A stretch of 64,000 bases of DNA. Source: a virus. Taxonomy: Duplodnaviria > Caudoviricetes. This document shows positions 46,011 to 64,000 of this stretch, one piece after another (position 1 is the stretch's first letter; each line of letters begins with the position of its first letter). Position numbers and translations under genes: made by a program. Location of the stretch: IMG/VR virus record IMGVR_UViG_3300006467_000282, positions 1 through 64,000 of that record. One strand, given 5' to 3'. Under the pieces are notes generated by a model. That model was not told the origin of the DNA and made no database searches. It saw only the letters and a program-made list of their open reading frames with translations.

Positions 46011-46039
46011 TTTACAAAATAATATTTCTATGATATAGT
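46011..46039 (+). promoter_or_regulatory. Sigma70-type promoter heading the nucleotide-modification operon
   Basis: TTTACA-N17-TATAGT. Confidence 0.7.
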
Positions 46040-46070: not shown

Positions 46071-46580
46071 ATGGAACACGCATTTTTAGTAGAAATAAAT
46101 ACAATGAATTATCGGAAATGGGATTCTAATAAAAATGAAATTCATGGACGATTTGTAATAATGGAAAGTCCGACACAGCTAAGCGATTATTTTCCGCAAG
46201 AAAAATTAGTTCAGCTAAGAACAAATATTCGTGGTAAAGAAAGCAAGTCAGATATCAGTAAATCAGCTAAAAAGTTAGCAAAAGAATGTTATAATGCAAT
46301 CATAAAAATTAAACCACAAGTTCAATCTACAGTTAACCCTAAAGTTAACTCCACAGAAAAGAAAGTAACTAAATCTGGCCGCTTAAGAGAGTATTTTCTA
46401 ATGAATGAAAGCGGTTCTGTATCGGATTTAGTTGCTTTTACAGGTTTTGATGAGAAAAATCTCAGAACAGCAGTTAGTATTTTAGCAAATCCTGGTAGAA
46501 CAAAATATCCAATAGTTATTCAGTATGATTCCGACAATAAAATATATAAATTAGAAAAGGAGGATGAATGCCAAGCATAA
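46071..46580 (+). CDS. Hypothetical protein, possible C-terminal winged HTH
   Basis: GSVSDLVAFTGFDEKNLRTAVSIL. Confidence 0.5.
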   Translation: MEHAFLVEINTMNYRKWDSNKNEIHGRFVIMESPTQLSDYFPQEKLVQLRTNIRGKESKSDISKSAKKLAKECYNAIIKIKPQVQSTVNPKVNSTEKKVTKSGRLREYFLMNESGSVSDLVAFTGFDEKNLRTAVSILANPGRTKYPIVIQYDSDNKIYKLEKEDECQA

Positions 46581-47059
46581 TATTTGAAGGACCAGATGGA
46601 GCTGGTAAAAGTTATATTGCAAGTTATATAAGTACAGTATCTAAAATTCCAATTTATCATGCTGGAGGACCACCAAAAACTCCGGAAGAAATAGTGGAAC
46701 GTGCTAATAAAATGGTGAAAATGGAAAACAAGATATTTGATAGATTTCCTATAATTTCTGAACAAATATATGGAACTATCGTCAGGGATAATAATCCCTT
46801 TAACTTTGGAGATTTAAAAGATATTCCTTTTCCCGTTGTATATTGCAGACCTTTTCGAGAGACATTGCTTTCATCAGAAAAAATTGAAAAGGATTATAAA
46901 GCAGGTAAACATATGAAGAGTGTCCTGGAAAAATATGAACAAATTATCGACAAATATGACGAACTTATGAGTTCGTTACCACATTTAACCTTTAATAGGG
47001 ATTTAGAATCATGTGCGGACTTTCTTACACGATTGGAAAGAACAATATTGAGAAAATGA
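46568..47059 (+). CDS. dNMP (thymidylate-type) kinase
   Basis: IIFEGPDGAGKS P-loop; FDRF.IISEQIYG. Confidence 0.8.
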   Translation: MPSIIFEGPDGAGKSYIASYISTVSKIPIYHAGGPPKTPEEIVERANKMVKMENKIFDRFPIISEQIYGTIVRDNNPFNFGDLKDIPFPVVYCRPFRETLLSSEKIEKDYKAGKHMKSVLEKYEQIIDKYDELMSSLPHLTFNRDLESCADFLTRLERTILRK

Positions 47060-48345
47060 ACGAAACCCTCAGGCATCGAGGAATACGTTCAAGTTATAAA
47101 AAATTAAATGATAATGATTTATATCTCGGCCATACCCGACTTCCAATTCAGGGGGTTGATAAAAGATATGACCAACCATCTGTATATGGAAATTATACAG
47201 CAGCAATGGTTGGAGAATTGTTTAATTTCAGAGCAATGGACCCAAGTGCAAGGACTGATTTATCTGTTTTAATGGATCAATATTCAATGAACGGGTCAAA
47301 TGTATTTATGAATTTTGATGGGTTTTGGTCAGTCATTATTTATAATGAATTTACGGGTTATACTGATATTTTCACAGATCATCTTGCAAAGAAACCCTTA
47401 TACTATAGAACTGATCTGTGCGCATTTGCTTCAGAAATAAAAGCATTAACTGTATTAGGTGAAAATACATTTGATAAAACTTATTTCTCAGCTGTTGCTA
47501 AATGGGGATACTGCCCTGAAGATCGTACACCCTTTAGCGAAATCAAAAAGTTGCCCGGTGGAGCACATATCCAGTTGAATTCTATGGGTTATGTAATTAA
47601 TTCTAAGTCCTATCTAAGTCTATTACCAAGTCCATCCGCAAGTTTAGAACTTATTATGGAAGATGCAGTTCGAAATCGTTTGGTATCTGATGTTCCAGTT
47701 TCCTTGCTCATGAGTGGTGGTTTGGATAGTACAATTATATATTATCTTATGAGAAAACATACAGATTCGATGACTATTTTTCATATAGATAATGATGAAG
47801 CAGAATATTTGAATTATATTGACTTTCGCCCACAAGACAAACTTATTTCCTTATCCATTGATGATACCTTATACGATACAGATGAAGTACTTTGGCATAA
47901 TGATGGACCTGTTGATCTTGGATCGTTAATGCCTCAGTATCTTCTTGCAAAGGAAATTAAAAAACATGGATTTAACGTGTGCTTATCAGGTGATGGTGCT
48001 GATGAATTGTTCGGTGGATATAAAAGGATAACTGAATATGATTCACAGTATTCTGATATATTTCATGAGCTTGCTTATTATCATTTACCAAGGCTGGATA
48101 AAATGATGATGGCTCATACAATTGAATTGCGTTCACCATTTCTTGCCCATTATGTAATTGAACACGCGCTGTCTATGAAGTATGAAGACAGGATTAATAA
48201 AATAGGATTAAAAGAAGCATTCAAACATATTGTTCCTGAAGAAATAGTTAATCGTAAGAAAAAACCATTAAGATATCGTACCGATTGGCGGCACGATTTG
48301 ATTAAACAATATAAAGATCTAATAATCAAGCGAGGTTTAGTATGA
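47011..48345 (+). CDS. asnB: Asparagine-synthetase-like glutamine amidotransferase (class II GATase + PP-loop)
   Basis: N-terminal MCG, HRG, GHTRLPI, MSGGLDS, SGDGADELFGGY, ELRSPFL. Confidence 0.88.
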   Translation: MCGLSYTIGKNNIEKMNETLRHRGIRSSYKKLNDNDLYLGHTRLPIQGVDKRYDQPSVYGNYTAAMVGELFNFRAMDPSARTDLSVLMDQYSMNGSNVFMNFDGFWSVIIYNEFTGYTDIFTDHLAKKPLYYRTDLCAFASEIKALTVLGENTFDKTYFSAVAKWGYCPEDRTPFSEIKKLPGGAHIQLNSMGYVINSKSYLSLLPSPSASLELIMEDAVRNRLVSDVPVSLLMSGGLDSTIIYYLMRKHTDSMTIFHIDNDEAEYLNYIDFRPQDKLISLSIDDTLYDTDEVLWHNDGPVDLGSLMPQYLLAKEIKKHGFNVCLSGDGADELFGGYKRITEYDSQYSDIFHELAYYHLPRLDKMMMAHTIELRSPFLAHYVIEHALSMKYEDRINKIGLKEAFKHIVPEEIVNRKKKPLRYRTDWRHDLIKQYKDLIIKRGLV

Positions 48346-48992
48346 ATGTAAATGATGTAGAAGAAATTGAAATTGAAGGTGATATGCTCGAAGCAATATT
48401 TGCGAAACAGAAATCATTGATGGATAAATATCATGTGATTGAAGAAAAGCAGGGAGTTGGGTATGGAATATTGAAAGGTAATCCTTTTGATATCAATGAA
48501 ATCCGCTCTCAATGTTTGGTAAAAGATTTTGCTTGGCGGTTTACAGAAGAAATTACTGAAGCTTCCGAGGGATTATTGAATGGGGAAACGGCGCATTTTC
48601 TAGAAGAACTTGCTGATGCTCTTCATTTCATAACTGAACTTTGTATTATGGTTGAGATTACTCCGAAAGATCTTATTGGCGAATTCCTCGGTTATAATCC
48701 TGATCAGGATATGTTTTATAAGTTATTTTTTGTTTGTGGTATGCCTAGAAAAGCTCTTCCGGATACATACAAACCAATTTACCATATGGGTTTGGCAATG
48801 AATTGCTTGAAACAAAAACCATGGAAGCAAACACACATTCTTACAGACCAAACTGCTTTTAAAAAACATATAATAGATTCCTACAGAGCTTTTTGTGAAT
48901 ATATGTCCCATTTTGAAGATGACAAAACTATGGCCAGTTATTATTTCAAAAAGAACGTTGTAAATCAATTCCGTCAAGACACACAATACTAA
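48342..48992 (+). CDS. Dimeric all-alpha dUTPase/dCTPase-like pyrophosphatase
   Basis: EEITEA...LEELADALHF...KQKPWKQ. Confidence 0.7.
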   Translation: MNVNDVEEIEIEGDMLEAIFAKQKSLMDKYHVIEEKQGVGYGILKGNPFDINEIRSQCLVKDFAWRFTEEITEASEGLLNGETAHFLEELADALHFITELCIMVEITPKDLIGEFLGYNPDQDMFYKLFFVCGMPRKALPDTYKPIYHMGLAMNCLKQKPWKQTHILTDQTAFKKHIIDSYRAFCEYMSHFEDDKTMASYYFKKNVVNQFRQDTQY

Positions 48993-49002
48993 TGGAGGTA
49001 AT

Positions 49003-49365
49003 ATGGGTTCTGTGATTGCAAGAATAAATGGTAATCGGTGTAAGTTCAATAATAACAAACATTTCGCTTTATATTTAATCGAAATATTGATTTACTCAGT
49101 TTCTCCCTTAGACGTTAAACTTAAAACCCTGGCTGAAATAATGGAAATGTCCGGACATAAAAGACGAATTAAATCCTGGGGTAAGGTTGATACTGATGAA
49201 AAATTTTCTAAATTATATTCAGAAACAATTCTTGCAATGGAAAATCTTTCCCCATTACCCGGTTTCAGTTCTTCAAAACCGAATGCTGTAAAAGCTGGAT
49301 ATAATAACCCGGAAAGAGGTCGGATATCGACTGATTGGACAAAAGATAAGAATCTTAACAAATAA
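49003..49365 (+). CDS. Hypothetical protein
   Basis: 120 aa, GGAGG RBS. Confidence 0.65.
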   Translation: MGSVIARINGNRCKFNNNKHFALYLIEILIYSVSPLDVKLKTLAEIMEMSGHKRRIKSWGKVDTDEKFSKLYSETILAMENLSPLPGFSSSKPNAVKAGYNNPERGRISTDWTKDKNLNK

Positions 49366-49367
49366 AT

Positions 49368-49574
49368 ATGTTTGAAGAGTTTGATAAAATACAGCGTGAA
49401 AATGCAGAGGGTAACACTTGCCGTACATGTAAATATTGTGCTAAATCAAACTTACTTACTAATCATTACTATTATTATTGCCACGTTCTACGATCAAAAA
49501 GAACGCGTTCTAAAATGATGAGAGTTAAACTAAAAGACAGAGCATGCGTAAATTACAAGGAGAAGAAAAAATGA
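49368..49574 (+). CDS. Small Cys-rich protein
   Basis: CRTCKYC...C...AC. Confidence 0.55.
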   Translation: MFEEFDKIQRENAEGNTCRTCKYCAKSNLLTNHYYYYCHVLRSKRTRSKMMRVKLKDRACVNYKEKKK

Positions 49575-50422
49575 CATACGAAATTGAACACGTAAATCTA
49601 AAGAAACAAGAAATTCCAGATGATTATCATTGCGATTGTGACTTTTGCAAAGAATTCGGTGGAGTACTAATTCGTGAAGACGGAACAAAATACAACAAAC
49701 TCGAACGCCGTAAATACTATGATACTGAAAATGAAAAGACTCATATTGCAAAAACACCATTGCACGTTGCTCGCTGGGCAATTCAGGAATATAGCGATGA
49801 AGCTGAAAATGTTCTTGATCCAACAATGGGTGCAGGTACAACTGCAGTAGAAGCTCTTATGCAGAAGAGAAATGCATTCGGAGTTGAAATTCAGTTCATT
49901 GACGTTATTAAAGCTAATATTGCAAAATGTAATCCATATGATATGCATGCAAAAATATATCATGGTGATGCTCGTGGTATTGCAGATTACTTCAGGGGTG
50001 AATCATTTGATTTGATTATTAATAATCCACCATATTCTGGGGATGAAAATCAAACAAGTTTTGGCGGGGATAAACGCAACATGATGGAATACGATAAAAC
50101 CCTGGCTAAGAATCTTGCTTTCATGAAAGAAAATGAGGCGTATTGGGGTACAATGTCAGATATCTATCGGGCTGCAACCAGGAGATTAAAAGTAGGTGGG
50201 CGTCTGGTAATTGGTGTTAAAGATATGGTGAAAAATAAAGCTCCATTCCTGATTCATAAACATTACGGCGAAGGTATAATGCGAATTGAAGATATGAGAT
50301 TTGAAAAAATGGTTCTTCTTCCACATTATCCGACAACACTTTTCATGAATACATACAATAAACGCTTTCCAGATGTCAAAGTTCCACAATACCAAACAAT
50401 ACTTGTGTTTATAAAAGTTTAA
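49571..50422 (+). CDS. SAM-dependent amino (N4-C/N6-A type) methyltransferase
   Basis: VLDPTMGAGTT motif I, then IINNPPY motif IV; RBS favours ATG 49571. Confidence 0.82.
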   Translation: MTYEIEHVNLKKQEIPDDYHCDCDFCKEFGGVLIREDGTKYNKLERRKYYDTENEKTHIAKTPLHVARWAIQEYSDEAENVLDPTMGAGTTAVEALMQKRNAFGVEIQFIDVIKANIAKCNPYDMHAKIYHGDARGIADYFRGESFDLIINNPPYSGDENQTSFGGDKRNMMEYDKTLAKNLAFMKENEAYWGTMSDIYRAATRRLKVGGRLVIGVKDMVKNKAPFLIHKHYGEGIMRIEDMRFEKMVLLPHYPTTLFMNTYNKRFPDVKVPQYQTILVFIKV

Positions 50423-50429
50423 ATAGATA

Positions 50430-50458
50430 TTTACAAAATAATGTTTTTATAATATAAT
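50430..50458 (+). promoter_or_regulatory. Sigma70-type promoter
   Basis: TTTACA-N17-TATAAT. Confidence 0.75.
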
Positions 50459-50485
50459 GTATCATTATTAATTAACGGAGGTACA

Positions 50486-51199
50486 ATGAGAATATTTACA
50501 AATCCAGTAGAAATGGTTAAAGAAGTTGAACGAGATTTATTTGAAATGGGAACTCGTTATCAGTCATCAACAGTGCAGGATCAAGACGTGGCAGATGATC
50601 CTGATTTCCAAACAATGGAATTATGTGGATATGCTTATATGTTGACTGAATTTGATTCAAACAATATGTTTGATATGCTTGATCATTCCGGGAAAATTAA
50701 CGCAGAATGGTTGAACTACGAAGACCAGGAACGTCGATATGGAACTACTGACAGACCACTAAATCCAGGATTAGCTTATACATTTAATGGTGAATTCTGG
50801 GAGAAATTTATTAGAAATGGCGTATTCTCTTATTCATATGCTGAGCGTTTCCAAGCACAACTCCCCTATATTATTCGGGAATTAAAAGCTAAACCGAATA
50901 CTCGCCAAGCAGTTATGACAATGTATGATCGTCACCAAGATATGATGCATTGGGGCGGACGAGATCGTGTTCCTTGCTCATTGACTTATCAGTTTATGTT
51001 GAGAGAAGATAAACTTGTTCTGATTTATAACCAAAGATCTTGTGATTTTGTTAAGTTTTTCCCATCAGATGTTTGGTTAACAGTTAATCTGCTTAAACAT
51101 GTTGCAAGAGAAATTGGTAAAGAACCAGGGCAGTTTATCCATATGCTTGGATCACTCCATGCATTTGCAGGTGATCTTAAAGGTAAAGAGATATTCTGA
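50486..51199 (+). CDS. Thymidylate-synthase homologue, dCMP hydroxymethylase-type
   Basis: RVPC164, QRSCD187, Asp195 at the ThyA Asn177 position, GSLH. Confidence 0.82.
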   Translation: MRIFTNPVEMVKEVERDLFEMGTRYQSSTVQDQDVADDPDFQTMELCGYAYMLTEFDSNNMFDMLDHSGKINAEWLNYEDQERRYGTTDRPLNPGLAYTFNGEFWEKFIRNGVFSYSYAERFQAQLPYIIRELKAKPNTRQAVMTMYDRHQDMMHWGGRDRVPCSLTYQFMLREDKLVLIYNQRSCDFVKFFPSDVWLTVNLLKHVAREIGKEPGQFIHMLGSLHAFAGDLKGKEIF

Positions 51200-51419
51200 T
51201 GAAAAAGAAAGATAGATACTGGGCAGTTTTTTCTCCAACTGGAGCAATGTTTACATCTACAATTAGAAAAAGAGAGGGAGATTGTAAACCTGCCTTTTTT
51301 AAAAACTATATTATGCGCCGGCATGAGTACGATAGTTGTAGTACTCGGGAAGTACTTATCACTGAAATAAAAAAATAAGAATATATTTTAATTTAATTTT
51401 AAAAGCAGAGGAAAGAAGA

Positions 51420-51830
51420 ATGAAAAAAATTAACGTAACGAATGTATTATTTTTATTGGCAATTCTATTTGTATTAAGTATTTTAACCCTCAATGGTTGT
51501 GGAAATGAAGATGCTCGAGTTGCATCCAATAATCTATCAAAAGCTGCAGATATGTTTGAGATTAATAGAAGAGTTGTTTTTTACAACGGCATTACTGATA
51601 AGTATATCTTATCAATTGAAGGACGTTGCGCAGTAGAGTTTTTTCCAAATAAATTTACTGTAACTATAAAAACTGGTCCGAATGAATTCAAAAAGCATTA
51701 CTTGGGAAGAGCTGATAATGTTTTCCCTTTCGTTGAACAACTTGATGCTGTACCAGTGGATGTTTATCATTATAAAGTCATCTTCAAACCACAGTCAATT
51801 ATTCCAGATATAGATATGAAAGTAAAGTAG
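51420..51830 (+). CDS. Putative lipoprotein
   Basis: Signal peptide ending LTLNGC; RRVVFYNGITD...IEGRC...KKHYLG. Confidence 0.65.
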   Translation: MKKINVTNVLFLLAILFVLSILTLNGCGNEDARVASNNLSKAADMFEINRRVVFYNGITDKYILSIEGRCAVEFFPNKFTVTIKTGPNEFKKHYLGRADNVFPFVEQLDAVPVDVYHYKVIFKPQSIIPDIDMKVK

Positions 51831-51868
51831 GGGCTAATAAATTAATTATAATTACAGGAGAGAAACAC

Positions 51869-51906
51869 TAATCCTGAAGGCTTTTCAGTCCCGGTTTTCA
51901 GGATTA
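51869..51906. repeat. Intergenic inverted repeat
   Basis: TAATCCTGAA...TTCAGGATTA. Confidence 0.55.
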
Positions 51907-51930
51907 ATAATCACTAAAGGAAATATAATA

Positions 51931-52254
51931 ATGAAAATGCCAAGAGAAAAACGCAGAAAATCTGAAAATGGATTATGCGCAACAGATCAAATCATGTATA
52001 TGCCACAACATGTTAAAGGTGATGTTGATCATCCAGACGTTGAAATCGGTTTTATTGTCGGAATTACTTATGATCGAACTGAAGCTTTTTGCCGATATTT
52101 CCAAAAGGGAAGTAAGACTGAATTCAGAACAAGAGCAAATAGTGAGTGTACTCCAGTTAATTGCTTAAGTAAATTAGATCATAAAGATCGAATTGACCAA
52201 GAAATCGTGGATGAATGGCTTGAAGATATAGTTAACGGGAGGGATTTACCATGA
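51931..52254 (+). CDS. Hypothetical protein
   Basis: 107 aa. Confidence 0.65.
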   Translation: MKMPREKRRKSENGLCATDQIMYMPQHVKGDVDHPDVEIGFIVGITYDRTEAFCRYFQKGSKTEFRTRANSECTPVNCLSKLDHKDRIDQEIVDEWLEDIVNGRDLP

Positions 52255-52514
52255 CCCATTACTCGGAAGACCCAAGAAGAGTAAGAGTTGATTTCTTTAA
52301 ACCTTCCGGAAAATGGTATGCAACTGAAGCTGTATTATGGACAGGAAGATACGGAGGCAAAGACCAACTAATTCATGACGCATTTAAAACAAGTTTACAA
52401 AAGCATTTCGAAGATCATCCTAACAGCCTAAAAGAAATGGATGCAATTTGTTTAAAACCTTATCATGAAAATGCTCACCCGATTCAAATTAAAGCAGGAG
52501 GATGGAATAAATGA
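52251..52514 (+). CDS. Hypothetical protein
   Basis: 87 aa; VRVDFFKPSGKWY. Confidence 0.7.
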   Translation: MTHYSEDPRRVRVDFFKPSGKWYATEAVLWTGRYGGKDQLIHDAFKTSLQKHFEDHPNSLKEMDAICLKPYHENAHPIQIKAGGWNK

Positions 52515-52747
52515 TGTTAGAATTTTTCATTGGCAATATACAAGAAACTTCCCTTGAAAATACAGCAGGAACAGTATTGAATAGGAAAGCAATAGAAAAT
52601 ATTGTCACAGAAATAATTCGTACAGGAAATATTAGTATTAATTTTATTGATATCCTTATAAATGAAAACGAATCAGATAAAGGTCATCTTGTTAAAGCAT
52701 CTACTTTCAGAAATGAATTAAAAGAATATATAGAGGGAATAGATTAA
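52511..52747 (+). CDS. Hypothetical protein
   Basis: 78 aa, ATGA overlap. Confidence 0.55.
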   Translation: MMLEFFIGNIQETSLENTAGTVLNRKAIENIVTEIIRTGNISINFIDILINENESDKGHLVKASTFRNELKEYIEGID

Positions 52748-53203
52748 ATGAAAAGACCATCGCAAGATAAATATTTCATGTCAATGGCGATGCTTGCTGC
52801 AACACGCTCAAATTGTTATCGTCGGCAAGTAGGTTGTGTAATTATTGATAAAGAAAATCGTGTACTTGCCACAGGCTACAATGGCGTTCCTTCAGGATAT
52901 CCCCACTGCGAAATCGGGGAATGCCCAAGAGATAAACCTGGGGCGGATTTACATTTATGTCTTGCAATACATGCAGAACAGAATGCTCTATTGCAGTGTT
53001 CAGATGTAGATAAGATTCATAAAGTATATGTAACTGATAGTCCGTGTTTGACTTGCACAGTAATGTTGATGAATACTAATTGCAAGCAAATCCTATACAA
53101 CAAGCCATATCCTGGGCATGAAACATCAAAAGATGCGTGGAAGAAACTAAATCGAATCTGGAGACAATATGACTTTCGTTCAAGCACCATTATTCCCAAC
53201 TAA
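52748..53203 (+). CDS. dCMP deaminase
   Basis: RSNCYRRQVGCVI, TGYNG, HAEQNA, PCLTC. Confidence 0.9.
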   Translation: MKRPSQDKYFMSMAMLAATRSNCYRRQVGCVIIDKENRVLATGYNGVPSGYPHCEIGECPRDKPGADLHLCLAIHAEQNALLQCSDVDKIHKVYVTDSPCLTCTVMLMNTNCKQILYNKPYPGHETSKDAWKKLNRIWRQYDFRSSTIIPN

Positions 53204-55184
53204 AGCAAAATGGGAATTGCCCAAGGAATTACCGAATCTATCTGGAGCTAAAGTAATCGGACTCGATACTGAGACACGCGATCCACAGCTTATAGAAAAA
53301 GGTCCGGGGGTAAGACGAGATGGATACCTGGTTGGAATATCAGTTGCAGTTCCAGAAGGTGATACCTGGTATTTGCCATTTGGCCATGCTGAAGGTAAAC
53401 AATTTGAACGTGAAAATGTGTTACGTTGGGCAAAAGATAATCTATGCAATCCAAATCAACCAAAAGTCGGAGCAAATATATTATATGATTTAGATTATCT
53501 ATATCATGCAGGAGTAAAAGTAGCAGGATCTTTCTTTGATATCCAAAATGCAGAACCGTTAATAGATGAAAATGCATATAGTTATTCTCTTGACACTTTA
53601 GCCAGGAAATATTTAGGTGAGAGCAAGCGGGAAGATATCTTAGATGATGTTTGTCGAGATTACGGATTAAAGGGTAAATCTCAAAAGCATTTATGGAGAT
53701 TCGGTGCTGAATATACCGGAACATATGCTGAGGGTGATGCAATCCAAGCTCTGCGAATATTTGAAAAACAGAAACCTGTTATTGCAGCGCAGGGATTAGA
53801 AACAGTGTTTGATATGGAAACACGTCTTATACCAATGCTTTTGCATATGAGACAACTCGGTGTACCAATTGATGTTGATCGATTAATGGGTTTACATGAT
53901 CAAATGACAGGTGAGCTTGATCAGCACAAGCTCGATCTTGATAATATTGCAGGTAGTCATATTGATTACTGGGCAGCAGAGTCAATTGCTAAAGTATTTG
54001 ATAAATCAGGGATTGATTATCCATTAACACCCAAATCTAAAAAGCCATCATTCACAAAAGATTGGCTTGATAATCATGGAAGTGATCTTTCCAGAAAGAT
54101 ATTGAAATGTAGAGAAGTCGACAAATTTGTAGGAACATTTCTTGAAGGTTCACTATTAGAAATGTTAGTTGGGGATCGGATTCATTGTCAATTTAATCAA
54201 TTAAGGTCAGATGAATTTGGAACAGTAACAGGTAGATTCTCATCCTCAAATCCCAACTTACAATTTATTCCTACAAGAACAGCTTTAGGGAAACTTTGCC
54301 GAAAATTATTCATACCAGACGAAGGTTATGGGTGGTGTAAAGCAGATTATTCTCAAATCGAAATAAGAATATTAGCACATTATGCAATGGGGAACGGAGC
54401 AGATGACGTTCGTCAAACTTTTATAGATAATCCCAGAGTCGATTATCACCAATGGTGTGCTGATATTGCAGGAGTTAGTCGTAGTGCTGCAAAGACTATT
54501 AACTTTGGAATTGTTTATGGAATGGGAGCTGAAAAGCTTGGCCGATCATTAGGAATTCCAACACATGAAGCTAAGAAATTCATCGACAACTACTTTATAG
54601 AATTACCTTTTGTAAAACATACTGTAGGTCAAGCAACACAAGCAGCAGAAAAACGTGGATATATTAAAACTATTCTTGGTCGCCGTAGAAGATATGATCT
54701 TTGGGAACCAAATGATTTTGATCTTGGTAAAATAATAAAAGCAGACCGTAGTCCGAAAGTAGTTGAGAAAAGAATAGAAAAATATATCTCAGAAAATAAA
54801 GGTAACCTCGGTAGAAAAGTTCGTCGGGGAGTAAAACGAGCAGGATGCTATCGAGCATTTAATGCTGCTGATCAGGGATCTGCAGCTGATATTATGAAAC
54901 TTGCTTTAGTTGATATTTGGGAAAGTGGAGTCTGCGATGTTATTAAACCATATATAACTGTACACGATGAATTAGATTTTGGTTATCCACTTTCAAAAAT
55001 CGGTAAAGAGGCAATTTATGAAGTTAAACATATCATGGAAGATGTTTATGAACTGAAAGTTCCAATGATCTGCGATATTGAAACCGGCCCGAATTGGGGC
55101 AATGTAAATGAACAGTGGAATTTATGTAATAAATATACTGAGGCAGGTCATAAATTTGCAGTAAAACAAGCGGAGATAGGATAA
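53169..55184 (+). CDS. polA: DNA polymerase family A (3'-5' exonuclease + polymerase)
   Basis: GLDTET, ADYSQIEIRILAH, RSAAKTINFGIVYG (Phe762 type), TVHDEL. Confidence 0.95.
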   Translation: MTFVQAPLFPTKAKWELPKELPNLSGAKVIGLDTETRDPQLIEKGPGVRRDGYLVGISVAVPEGDTWYLPFGHAEGKQFERENVLRWAKDNLCNPNQPKVGANILYDLDYLYHAGVKVAGSFFDIQNAEPLIDENAYSYSLDTLARKYLGESKREDILDDVCRDYGLKGKSQKHLWRFGAEYTGTYAEGDAIQALRIFEKQKPVIAAQGLETVFDMETRLIPMLLHMRQLGVPIDVDRLMGLHDQMTGELDQHKLDLDNIAGSHIDYWAAESIAKVFDKSGIDYPLTPKSKKPSFTKDWLDNHGSDLSRKILKCREVDKFVGTFLEGSLLEMLVGDRIHCQFNQLRSDEFGTVTGRFSSSNPNLQFIPTRTALGKLCRKLFIPDEGYGWCKADYSQIEIRILAHYAMGNGADDVRQTFIDNPRVDYHQWCADIAGVSRSAAKTINFGIVYGMGAEKLGRSLGIPTHEAKKFIDNYFIELPFVKHTVGQATQAAEKRGYIKTILGRRRRYDLWEPNDFDLGKIIKADRSPKVVEKRIEKYISENKGNLGRKVRRGVKRAGCYRAFNAADQGSAADIMKLALVDIWESGVCDVIKPYITVHDELDFGYPLSKIGKEAIYEVKHIMEDVYELKVPMICDIETGPNWGNVNEQWNLCNKYTEAGHKFAVKQAEIG

Positions 55185-62946: not shown

Positions 62947-63173
62947 AAATCAAAAAAGATCAATTGGTAAAAGTTAATCATGTACGTAAAGGTAGATTTA
63001 ATGCAATTGCAGATAATGATTTCGATACAGATACAACAACATGGTATCCACTATCGGTAGCTCAGGAAGATCCAATTAATGGTTTTTCTACAGTAGCAAA
63101 GTGGAGAAAAGGCGAATCAATTCCATGTAGAAATTCACTCTGTGAGATTTCAATAATTGAGAAAGGTAAATAA
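62943..63173 (+). CDS. Hypothetical protein
   Basis: ATGA overlap, GGGAG RBS. Confidence 0.6.
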   Translation: MKIKKDQLVKVNHVRKGRFNAIADNDFDTDTTTWYPLSVAQEDPINGFSTVAKWRKGESIPCRNSLCEISIIEKGK

Positions 63174-63174
63174 A

Positions 63175-64000
63175 ATGAAAAGCATAATAGTTTATTCGGG
63201 CAAGGGCGGAGTTGGGAAGACAACTACTACTGCAAACTTGGCAAAAGCACTTGTTGATAAAGGGAAAAGCGTATTTATATTGGACGCGGATATAAATACT
63301 CCATCCATGCATGTTGTTTTCCCAGATAAAACTGTTAATAAGAACTTATACGTACATTCCATGGGGTATGATACTCGTGGATTAGTTTATATTCAAGGTA
63401 GTATGGTAAAAAAATACATCAGACAAGCAAAAACAAAAGTTAATAAGATGAAACCTGATATTGTATTGATTGATACTCCACCCTCTATAACAGATATTCA
63501 TCTTAATTTAATTGAATCTTTGGAAGTATCTGGAGTTATTTTTGTAACTCAACCTAATAAACTAAGTATGGAAGATGTCGGTCGAACTTCTGGATTTTTT
63601 AAAACAAAAGAGATACCAGTAATTGGTATAATTGAAAATATGAGTCAGGGAGAAGCTATTGATTATACAGTTTCTTTACTTGGCAAAATAAAATTCGAAT
63701 CATCTTTTGATATTGAAAAAGTATTCAAGCTTAATTATAAAACTTATGATGAAATTTCTAATATAGTAATGGATGCGGAAGATGCAATATATGAAAGTAG
63801 TACAAAACAATTTACCGATGAATCTATTTCTGAAGAAGCTGTACAGGAAATGATGCGTTCTAAATTAATGCCTAAATTAAAGTTCGTTAATTTAGCAACT
63901 TGGGATTACCTGGTTGAATATTTCTTAGAAAATGATTTTGCTGGATTATATTCTTTGGATAGATTTATAGATCATAATACAACAGAGAAAATAGGTAGAA
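63175..64000 (+). CDS. Mrp/NBP35/ParA-family P-loop ATPase, truncated by the window edge (not in ORF track)
   Basis: Hand translation: MKSIIVYSGKGGVGKTTTTANLA...ILDADINTPS...LIDTPP...VTQP...IGIIENMS; open to 64000. Confidence 0.85.
   Translation, partial: MKSIIVYSGKGGVGKTTTTANLAKALVDKGKSVFILDADINTPSMHVVFPDKTVNKNLYVHSMGYDTRGLVYIQGSMVKKYIRQAKTKVNKMKPDIVLIDTPPSITDIHLNLIESLEVSGVIFVTQPNKLSMEDVGRTSGFFKTKEIPVIGIIENMSQGEAIDYTVSLLGKIKFESSFDIEKVFKLNYKTYDEISNIVMDAEDAIYESSTKQFTDESISEEAVQEMMRSKLMPKLKFVNLATWDYLVEYFLENDFAGLYSLDRFIDHNTTEKIGR

Follow-up and report, generated by a model that had tools for sequence, protein, structure and literature searches.

In bacteriophage T4, cytosine replacement depends on gp56, a dCTPase, gp42, a deoxycytidine monophosphate (dCMP) hydroxymethylase, gp1, a deoxynucleoside monophosphate (dNMP) kinase, and the cd deaminase, after which glucosyltransferases act. 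A gene block of similar outline occurs in the DNA considered here, the first 64 kb (64,000 nucleotides, hereafter the window) of the IMG/VR virus record IMGVR_UViG_3300006467_000282. It encodes a small nucleotide kinase, a two-domain enzyme resembling the asparagine synthetase AsnB, an all-alpha pyrophosphohydrolase, an amino-methyltransferase-like protein with an NPPY motif, a compact homologue of thymidylate synthase (TS), a dCMP deaminase and a family A DNA polymerase (PolA). On balance we lean towards the view that this cassette serves pre-replicative cytosine replacement following T4 logic, extended by one or two tailoring enzymes. A preliminary description had named five genes on the plus strand between 46568 and 51199, and open reading frame (ORF) analysis, Pfam and PHROG matches and sequence motifs bear this out. 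The gene overlaps that it noted are also present (49 nt between the kinase and AsnB-like genes, 4 nt between the AsnB-like and pyrophosphatase genes, 31 nt between a 68-residue ORF and the methyltransferase gene), with the amidotransferase gene lying between those for the kinase and the pyrophosphatase.

Several published systems bear on this locus. CmoY of Synechococcus phage S-B43 is an AsnS homologue that ligates glycine to 5-carboxymethylcytosine in DNA (PMC12783734), and a second ligase cluster, carrying a glutaminase domain, is predicted to amidate 5-carboxymethylcytosine (Yang et al. 2025, PMC12783734). Amidotransferase genes, uncharacterised, are reported near thymidine hypermodification genes (Lee et al. 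2021, PMC8989533). The flavin-dependent dCMP 5-hydroxylases include AfhB of phage HY126 (PDB codes 9iqc and 9iqu), RB69 gp48 and DLP3 gp80 (PMC13326640). In the MetaGPA study a TS with Asp177, a dCMP deaminase and a PRA-PH pyrophosphatase occur together on contigs selected for modified cytosine; in the portion of its supplementary data available to us, no GATase_7 enrichment appears among the matches listed (PMC8670742). The preliminary description presented the pathway as novel. The module does represent a distinct, uncharacterised variant, but an AsnS-like ligase acting on a DNA base (PMC12783734) and hypermodification-associated amidotransferases (PMC8989533) were already in print.

The AsnB-like protein is the most distinctive component. 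The ORF beginning at 47011 encodes an MCG start, which supplies a catalytic cysteine of the N-terminal nucleophile (Ntn) type, and Cys1 is found in 80 of 81 family members. The recorded gene call (429 residues, P0001) begins 15 codons downstream, omitting 47011-47055 and losing the catalytic MCG; the start at 47011 restores it and gives the 49-nt overlap with the kinase gene. The protein carries the PP-loop sequence SGGLDS, a motif that is invariant in the 81-member alignment of the clade. An AlphaFold model, with a mean predicted local distance difference test (pLDDT) value of 91.9, finds its best PDB match in Escherichia coli AsnB (1ct9, template modelling (TM) score 0.75, E 4e-26) and also superposes on human ASNS, TsnB9, beta-lactam synthetase and carbapenam synthetase with TM scores of approximately 0.75.

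Alignment of the 81 family members with E. coli AsnB, the numbering of which is used here, reveals that the clade keeps Cys1, Gly75, Glu76, Asp98, the SGGxDS motif, Asp351, Glu352, Tyr357, Lys429 and Lys449. Replacements are seen in all 81 members at four other positions (Glu348 to Asp, Ser350 to Ala, Asp384 to His and Asn389 to Asp). At position 376 the lysine is lost in favour of Val, Ile or Thr, and at 387 Arg or Lys is retained. We take Glu348, Lys376 and Asp384 to be the contacts to the aspartyl moiety in AsnB/ASNS structures, and because such residues are replaced throughout the clade the enzyme is very unlikely to make asparagine. The glutamine site of the window protein has Arg49, Gly75, Glu76 and Asp98 in place, with Val at position 74.

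Relatives of the AsnB-like protein are present on 392 IMG/VR contigs, and more than 100 homologues in metagenomes share 41-63% identity over lengths of 440-470 residues. Across 185,579 prokaryote species, each represented by one genome, the best cellular match reaches only 32% identity, and it is an ordinary AsnB paralogue of greater length. The best matches among cultured-phage proteins are at most 27.5% identical and no member of the clade is present in the cultured-phage collection. To judge from these searches the clade is confined to viruses. An ordinary asparagine synthetase is ruled out by this distribution together with the active-site residues.

Is the gene a working part of the cassette or simply a neighbour? 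For 80 IMG/VR loci, the window being excluded, every ORF lying up to 10 kb from the AsnB-like gene entered a clustering, and a survey seeded with the TS-like protein was made by a profile search of IMG/VR that returned 498 contigs, of which 80 loci were examined. The figures are plain locus counts without phylogenetic correction. The dCMP deaminase accompanies the AsnB-like gene most constantly (62/80 loci), often in the direct succession TS, AsnB, deaminase, followed by the TS-like gene (60/80), the kinase (34/80) and a methyltransferase (33/80). At least 5 kb of sequence is available on both sides at 35 loci, or 24 once a jumbo-phage lineage is left out, and we treat these as informative. 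Both the TS-like and deaminase genes lie within 10 kb at 23 of the 35 and at 23 of the 24; eleven of the 12 well-flanked loci without the pair belong to that single lineage of very large phages. The preliminary description had proposed co-occurrence elsewhere as a check on the pathway, and the survey finds it, with the dCMP deaminase, absent from the original gene list, joining the conserved set.

The arrangement of the cassette varies. In the PolA lineage the order is kinase, AsnB, pyrophosphatase, methyltransferase, TS, deaminase, PolA. In a lineage with PolB, UvsX, DnaB and ThyX the TS, AsnB and deaminase genes are consecutive, with a PRA-PH pyrophosphatase and an Nmad1 or cytidylyltransferase-like gene nearby. 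A third order is TS, kinase, AsnB, PRA-PH, deaminase. The linkage is thus seen on PolA, PolB and unidentified replication modules. It exceeds chance, and since the AsnB-like gene takes up varying positions in one cassette this points to a functional link that goes beyond inheritance. The earlier proposal that the protein is part of the cassette, as opposed to an asparagine synthetase that happens to lie there, agrees with the replacements in 81/81 members, the restriction to viruses and the association with TS in both PolA and PolB phages.

The reverse survey gives a different proportion, with the AsnB-like gene at only 11 of the 80 TS-seeded loci. Close relatives with near-identical TS active sites occur both with and without it. 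As the gene is present in a minority of TS cassettes whose TS active sites are alike, it would appear to provide an optional tailoring step on a widespread core. The usual layout of TS-seeded loci is kinase, pyrophosphatase, a gene for a protein of 250-280 residues that we call k4, TS, deaminase and PolA. The k4 gene is directly upstream of the TS-like gene at 49/80 TS-seeded loci and in cultured phages (examples are L125:8965-9813, L254:2147-2935 in PMBT14, L256:2223-3056 in P744 and L090:6208-6957 in CPD4_74), and it does not co-occur with the AsnB-like gene at any locus. Pfam offers no match for it, and the PHROG families to which it belongs carry no assigned function. In a profile comparison (47% probability, E 2e-4) conserved Cys, Arg and Asp residues of k4 align with TS Cys146, Arg166 and Asp177, and language-model features also indicate TS, so that k4 may be a second, highly divergent TS-fold enzyme.

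The TS homologue itself was aligned to L. casei TS, E. coli ThyA and T4 gp42; residues are given in E. coli numbering. The catalytic cysteine is kept and the position of ThyA Asn177 is occupied by Asp. Tyr94, Arg126, Gln127, Arg143, Cys146, Arg166, Asp169, Asp177, His207 and Phe209 are invariant in 61 AsnB-linked TS homologues, and the Gln127/Arg143/Asp177 signature is also carried by 70 of 71 AsnB-negative TS-like proteins from TS-seeded loci. The change N177D is established as what sets specificity for dCMP (Hardy and Nalivaika 1992, as summarised in PMC13326640 and PMC8670742) and Asp177 points to dCMP as the substrate here. Methylases have Leu at position 143 and hydroxymethylases an acidic residue, Asp or Glu, and Asn at 169 marks the flavin-dependent 5-hydroxy-dCMP synthases (PMC13326640). 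The latter family was considered and rejected as an assignment because Asp169 is invariant where its members carry Asn. A model of the protein (pLDDT 82.6) has its nearest structures in AfhB (9iqc/9iqu, TM score 0.80), then in MilA, classical TS and T4 gp42. We regard the protein as belonging to a distinct, compact viral subfamily and presume it to be a dCMP C5-modifying enzyme.

Beyond the window, at positions 74488-75123 of the genome (L092:11488-12123), there is a gene for ThyX (Pfam Thy1, 3.6e-43); ThyX is also encoded near the module in PolB-lineage relatives. ThyX is the predicted ordinary route to deoxythymidine monophosphate (dTMP) alongside the Asp177 TS homologue. Taken together Asp177, ThyX and the dCMP deaminase fit T4 logic, with cytosine as the base replaced and thymine supplied by the ordinary route, and cytosine is the likely parent of the modified base. 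The preliminary description had also placed the modification on cytosine, and the invariance of Asp177 with a separate supply of dTMP from ThyX and the deaminase speaks for it.

The remaining components can be placed by analogy with T4. The small kinase, homologues of which (cluster c3) are also present at 48/80 TS-seeded loci, presumably phosphorylates the modified dNMP. The pyrophosphatase has acidic EExxE-type motifs, and either this family or the PRA-PH family is represented at 21 of the 35 well-flanked AsnB loci; its family membership is read from sequence and its role as a dCTPase is presumed. PolA follows the deaminase in all PolA-lineage relatives and presumably incorporates the modified nucleotide. 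In many relatives (L002/L003:14583-17060 and L154:12207-14576, for example) the PolA encoded after the deaminase bears a fused uracil-DNA glycosylase (UDG) domain at its N terminus, and L002 has an additional, separate UDG gene adjoining that for the pyrophosphatase. The window PolA, of 671 residues, has no UDG domain.

The methyltransferase presents the S-adenosylmethionine-binding motif I as VLDPTMGAGTT, followed by NNPPY, with weaker matches to RsmD, RsmC and N6_Mtase. Both hallmarks of N6/N4 exocyclic-amine methyltransferases, motif I and the (D/N/S)PP(Y/F) motif IV, are therefore present. By profile search, homologues of this type occur at 22 of 81 AsnB loci in both the PolA and PolB lineages. 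At TS-seeded loci they are found in 4 of 11 that are AsnB-positive as against 0 of 69 that are AsnB-negative. The window-type methyltransferase is thus optional but linked to the AsnB-like gene, and its inclusion in the pathway, as first suggested, is consistent with its presence in two phage lineages. The motif is NNPPY in the PolA lineage and NGTPYP in the PolB lineage (L040, L042, L056, L058, L060, L071, L072, L078 and L080; profile match E 1.6e-70). NGTPYP is unusual among DNA amino-methyltransferases, a hint of a non-standard substrate. NPPY enzymes methylate exocyclic amines and HemK acts on the amide nitrogen of glutamine; methylation of a nitrogen introduced by the AsnB-like enzyme is accordingly a reasonable guess and no more.

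Many AsnB-positive relatives have a C5-methyltransferase-like protein of 400-460 residues beside the window-type NPPY methyltransferase (L008, L012, L015, L016, L023, L030 and L035) or fused to it (L013, L014 and L062). A simple motif scan of these C5-methyltransferase-like proteins detected no Pro-Cys-Gln/Glu or xPPC catalytic motif. In the window the NPPY protein stands alone, with no such partner.

From these observations a pathway can be proposed, its first part by analogy with T4. The pyrophosphatase would drain dCTP to dCMP, the Asp177 TS-fold enzyme would modify dCMP at C5, the small kinase would phosphorylate the product and the phage PolA would build it into DNA, with surplus dCMP being turned into ordinary dTMP by the deaminase and ThyX. 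The tailoring steps follow family chemistry. The AsnB-like enzyme would use ATP at the PP-loop, and nitrogen freed at the N-terminal cysteine domain, to amidate or aminate the C5 substituent, and the NPPY methyltransferase may then methylate the newly added nitrogen. The AsnB-like step may take place on free nucleotides or on DNA. The final base would be a putative, undescribed nitrogen-bearing C5-substituted cytosine; a literature search found no aminomethylcytosine or carbamoylcytosine in phages.

A number of observations weigh against this interpretation. First, the tailoring chemistry. To our knowledge the solved AsnB-family enzymes all adenylate a carboxylate, and the known products of TS homologues (methyl, hydroxymethyl and hydroxyl) do not have one; the two central steps are therefore not yet chemically joined. 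In the glutaminase site, which is atypical, Val takes the place of the oxyanion residue Asn74 in the window protein and in 65/81 members, position 74 being changed in 70/81, and Arg49, present in the window protein, is kept in 37/81 and lost in 44/81. Next, the TS-like protein. Its Arg143 fits neither the methylase nor the hydroxymethylase class, Gln127 and Phe209 also deviate, and both its nearest structure and its best PDB sequence match are a flavin-dependent dCMP hydroxylase of the AfhB type. With respect to gene order, much of the synteny within each lineage is due to shared descent. The jumbo-phage lineage, represented by 11 fragments, displays the AsnB-like gene with a kinase-like gene only, on contigs that are 18-47% complete, and no TS homologue was found on the five contigs searched, which span that same range of completeness. 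Finally, the literature searched holds no experimental data on the AsnB-like clade or the TS-like subfamily, and no measured base in a carrier. The jumbo-phage fragments (L053, L066, L068-L070, L074, L076, L079, L082, L083 and L087) lie on contigs of up to 131 kb; the gene upstream of the AsnB-like gene is assigned as kinase-like with a profile probability of 94%, and ten neighbouring genes that were scanned gave no Pfam match.

The chemical gap might be closed in different ways. The Arg143 TS-like enzyme may add a carboxyl-bearing group, or the AsnB-like enzyme may, like other PP-loop enzymes, activate a ring carbonyl or a hydroxymethyl group. The invariant Arg143 sits at the position of the C5 substituent. 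A tentative and, taken as a whole, rather unlikely proposal is that the TS subfamily makes no hydroxymethylcytosine but installs a new, probably anionic C5 group, for example a carboxyl-bearing one, the AsnB-like enzyme amidates that group while it is still on the nucleotide and the methyltransferase N-methylates the amide to give, for example, an N-methylcarboxamide-type cytosine. If true this would be a wholly new DNA base, produced by three enzyme types not before seen together on DNA precursors.

Alternatively the carboxylate may come from a methyltransferase-like enzyme, in the manner of CmoX and CmoY (PMC12783734). Carried through, this means that a methyltransferase-like enzyme adds a carboxymethyl group from carboxy-S-adenosylmethionine to DNA after replication and that the AsnB-like enzyme amidates it with glutamine-derived ammonia; in the present phage the task of donating the carboxymethyl group would have to fall to the NPPY methyltransferase itself, with an exocyclic amine as its target. 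CmoY sets a precedent for an AsnS homologue working on DNA, a glutaminase-bearing amidating cluster is predicted (PMC12783734), and a carboxylate substrate suits AsnB-family chemistry. C5-methyltransferase-like genes adjoin the TS-like gene in many relatives, and Streptomyces phage TurkishDelight has the arrangement ParB-ParB-methyltransferase-GATase/AsnB-methyltransferase with an AsnB-like protein 27% identical to that of the window. We nevertheless consider this explanation quite unlikely. The complete genome has no match to CmoX (the PF00145 C5-cytosine methyltransferase family, SPPC motif), nor at E ≤ 0.1 to the carboxy-S-adenosylmethionine synthase CmoA (TIGR00740), although a host CmoA is possible. 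No methyltransferase lies within 10 kb at 9 of the 24 informative loci, compared with the TS-like gene at 23. The active site also departs from that of the TurkishDelight protein, which keeps Asn74, Arg49 and Glu348 where this clade has Val74 and Asp348, along with Ala350, His384 and Asp389. A methyltransferase source for the carboxylate is weakened on the same three counts.

Could the product be a thymine or uracil derivative rather than a cytosine? The TS-like enzyme would modify dCMP, the deaminase would convert the product to a deoxyuridine monophosphate (dUMP) derivative and the AsnB-like enzyme would aminate it to, for instance, a base of the 5-aminomethyluracil type, resembling those in phages known to hypermodify thymidine. 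We give this little credence, although the deaminase is the most constant neighbour and its gene often comes directly after the AsnB-like gene. Amidotransferase genes are associated with thymidine hypermodification genes (Lee et al. 2021, PMC8989533), 5-aminomethyl-deoxyuridine is a known phage base (PMC11472151), and Pseudomonas phage PMBT14 has a matching kinase-pyrophosphatase-TS-deaminase-PolA layout. Against it, the encoded ThyX allows ordinary dTMP to be produced, and the deaminase and ThyX are fully accounted for by dTMP supply, as in T4. The gene order in PMBT14 had raised the suspicion of a thymidine system of the M6/ViI type. This is excluded because the kinase-family and k4 profiles have no match at E ≤ 1 to M6 gp54, the 5-hydroxymethyl-deoxyuridine (5-hmdU) DNA kinase, or gp51, the aGPT-Pplase, and because the M6 TS homologue has Arg127, Asp143 and Tyr209 in place of the Gln127/Arg143/Phe209 signature.

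A different proposal draws on the wider PP-loop superfamily, in which ThiI, TilS and GMP synthetase adenylate a ring carbonyl. The AsnB-like PP-loop might adenylate the carbonyl of a pyrimidine ring for replacement by ammonia, converting a dUMP- or dTMP-type nucleotide to a dCMP-type nucleotide and so balancing the pools. That such chemistry appears established for PP-loop enzymes, and that the aspartate-binding residues are lost, would fit, as would the tight linkage to kinase, deaminase and pyrophosphatase, all of them pyrimidine-nucleotide enzymes, and the jumbo-phage unit of a kinase-like and an AsnB-like gene only. We know of no AsnB-subfamily enzyme that activates a ring carbonyl, however, and the solved relatives all act on carboxylates. 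The reaction would set up a futile cycle with the neighbouring deaminase, and it leaves unexplained why the gene joins only a minority of TS-like cassettes. We judge it very unlikely. The least probable explanation, that the AsnB-like gene is an auxiliary metabolic gene unrelated to DNA (for asparagine, or for amidation of cell-wall or glycan carboxylates) and owes its place to descent, has on its side the automatic annotation as asparagine synthase, the many substrates amidated by bacterial AsnB paralogues and the fact that synteny within a lineage can be inherited, but is contradicted by the replaced aspartate-contact residues and lack of cellular members, by the location between kinase and pyrophosphatase in PolA phages and between TS and deaminase in PolB phages, and by the overlap with both neighbouring genes here.

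The genome from which the window is taken is complete, at 82,031 bp with 127-bp direct terminal repeats and a GC content of approximately 34%, and near-identical DNA was not found among cultured phages. Genes for structural proteins and for a primase-polymerase occupy the minus strand over roughly the first 36 kb, beyond which there is a plus-strand module for replication and nucleotide metabolism. The part of interest, 46071-55184, is listed in Table 1; small ORFs lie between the TS homologue and the deaminase.

Table 1. Features of the replication and nucleotide-metabolism block, in window coordinates
Feature	Position	Strand	Remarks
169-residue protein, no assigned function	46071..46580	+	13-nt overlap with kinase gene; no Pfam or PHROG match
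Small P-loop nucleotide kinase, thymidylate-kinase-like, 163 residues	46568..47059	+	GPDGAGKS; phrog_761 1e-14
AsnB-like two-domain enzyme, 444 residues	47011..48345	+	Asn_synthase 7e-49, GATase_6/7; MCG start; SGGLDS
All-alpha NTP pyrophosphohydrolase (dUTPase_2/MazG-like), 216 residues	48342..48992	+	dUTPase_2 6.8e-8; phrog_12184 6.7e-22
120-residue protein, no family match	49003..49365	+	Homologues (cluster c58) at same position in 4 PolA-lineage relatives
68-residue ORF	49368..49574	+	ORF only; no family match, no conserved homologue in related loci
NPPY amino-methyltransferase-like protein, 292 residues	49544..50422	+	N6_N4_Mtase 2.5e-16; VLDPTMGAGTT; NNPPY
Compact TS-fold enzyme, 237 residues	50486..51199	+	Thymidylat_synt 2.2e-15; Cys146, Asp177
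dCMP deaminase, 151 residues	52748..53203	+	dCMP_cyt_deam_1 8e-22; HAE and PCxxC zinc motifs
Family A DNA polymerase with 3'-5' exonuclease, 671 residues	53169..55184	+	DNA_pol_A 4.5e-68; DNA_pol_A_exo1 3.7e-11

Homologues of the 169-residue protein (cluster c48) hold the same place upstream of the kinase in PolA-lineage relatives. Promoter-like sites are present at 46011-46039, in the gap before the gene for this protein, and at 50430-50458, in the only sizeable gap upstream of the TS homologue; such sites are no commoner than chance, and the counts of both promoters and terminators equal chance expectation. The absence of a recognisable glycosyltransferase, pointed out in the preliminary description, extends to the complete 82,031-bp genome for PF00534 and PF00535, a search that did not cover the T4-specific glucosyltransferase families. 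Pfam scans of ORFs, which took in part of them, likewise revealed no glycosyltransferase.

One of the small ORFs, at 51420-51830, encodes a protein resembling Phage_VG64 and recombination directionality factors (RDF; Pfam 4.9e-48). Yersinia phage P744 has an RDF-annotated gene at the matching place, after its TS-like gene. Near the end of the window, at 63157-63999 and continuing to genome position 64371, there is a gene for a ParA/MinD-type P-loop ATPase of 404 residues (Pfam ParA 1.3e-36), which in a phage with terminal repeats may relate to partitioning or a plasmid-like state.

Hypermodifications of phage DNA decide which restriction, CRISPR and glycosylase defences can act on a phage, and hypermodification systems have repeatedly supplied enzymes for epigenetic sequencing and DNA labelling. 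The module described here is a real variant of phage cytosine replacement, its tailoring chemistry being drawn by analogy. It is abundant, on hundreds of viral contigs with differing replication systems, yet has no cultured carrier in the collection, whereas the TS-like core is common to cultured phages of Pseudomonas, Yersinia, Serratia and Clostridium perfringens. New here is the relation of the AsnB-like gene, apparently an add-on, to that shared core. Also new are the exclusive occurrence of the window-type methyltransferase at AsnB-positive TS loci, the mutual exclusion of the AsnB-like and k4 genes and the rejection of an M6-type system. Solving the module would probably give a new natural DNA base and a new reaction type for the AsnS family, together with a new specificity class of TS homologue, marked by Arg at the residue that tells methylases and hydroxymethylases apart.

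How does the module compare with the known systems? Relative to E. coli AsnB (1ct9) and human ASNS (6gq3) the AsnB-like protein has the same two-domain fold, N-terminal cysteine, SGGxDS motif and ATP contacts, Lys429 and Lys449. It differs from the E. coli enzyme in being some 110 residues shorter, in the changes Asn74 to Val, Glu348 to Asp, Asp384 to His and Lys376 to a hydrophobic residue, and in its occurrence in viruses only. With the CmoA/CmoX/CmoY system of phage S-B43 there would be in common an AsnS-family enzyme that tailors a C5-modified cytosine through ATP-dependent amide formation. In S-B43 its partner is a C5-methyltransferase, whereas the constant partner at the AsnB-like loci is the TS-fold enzyme. 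AfhB shares with the TS-like protein a compact chain of approximately 235 residues, the absence of a C-terminal folate-closing segment, and Asp177 with Phe209. The 5-hydroxy-dCMP synthases are distinguished by D169N and Glu143, compared with Asp169 and Arg143 here.

Among cultured phages PMBT14 (Pseudomonas), P744 (Yersinia) and CPD4 (Clostridium perfringens) have the same TS-like subfamily, the same kinase and pyrophosphatase families and an order ending in PolA. A deaminase is present in PMBT14 and P744 and none is annotated in CPD4. These three phages do not possess the AsnB-like gene or the NPPY methyltransferase and have k4 beside the TS-like gene instead. The literature search returned no report of base composition for the DNA of PMBT14, Serbin, P744 or CPD4.

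The closest parallel is with T4. Both systems have an all-alpha pyrophosphatase, a polymerase of their own and a TS-fold enzyme with the catalytic cysteine and Asp177; each also has a kinase of the dNMP type, a dCMP deaminase and a dTMP synthase distinct from the TS-fold enzyme. T4 gp42 has Asp143, Arg127 and Tyr209 where Arg143, Gln127 and Phe209 occur here. The acidic residue 143 that marks hydroxymethylases is replaced by Arg in 61/61 AsnB-linked and 70/71 further members. T4 then tailors its base with glucosyltransferases; in this phage, where PF00534 and PF00535 were not found, an AsnB-like amidotransferase and an NPPY methyltransferase stand in their place.

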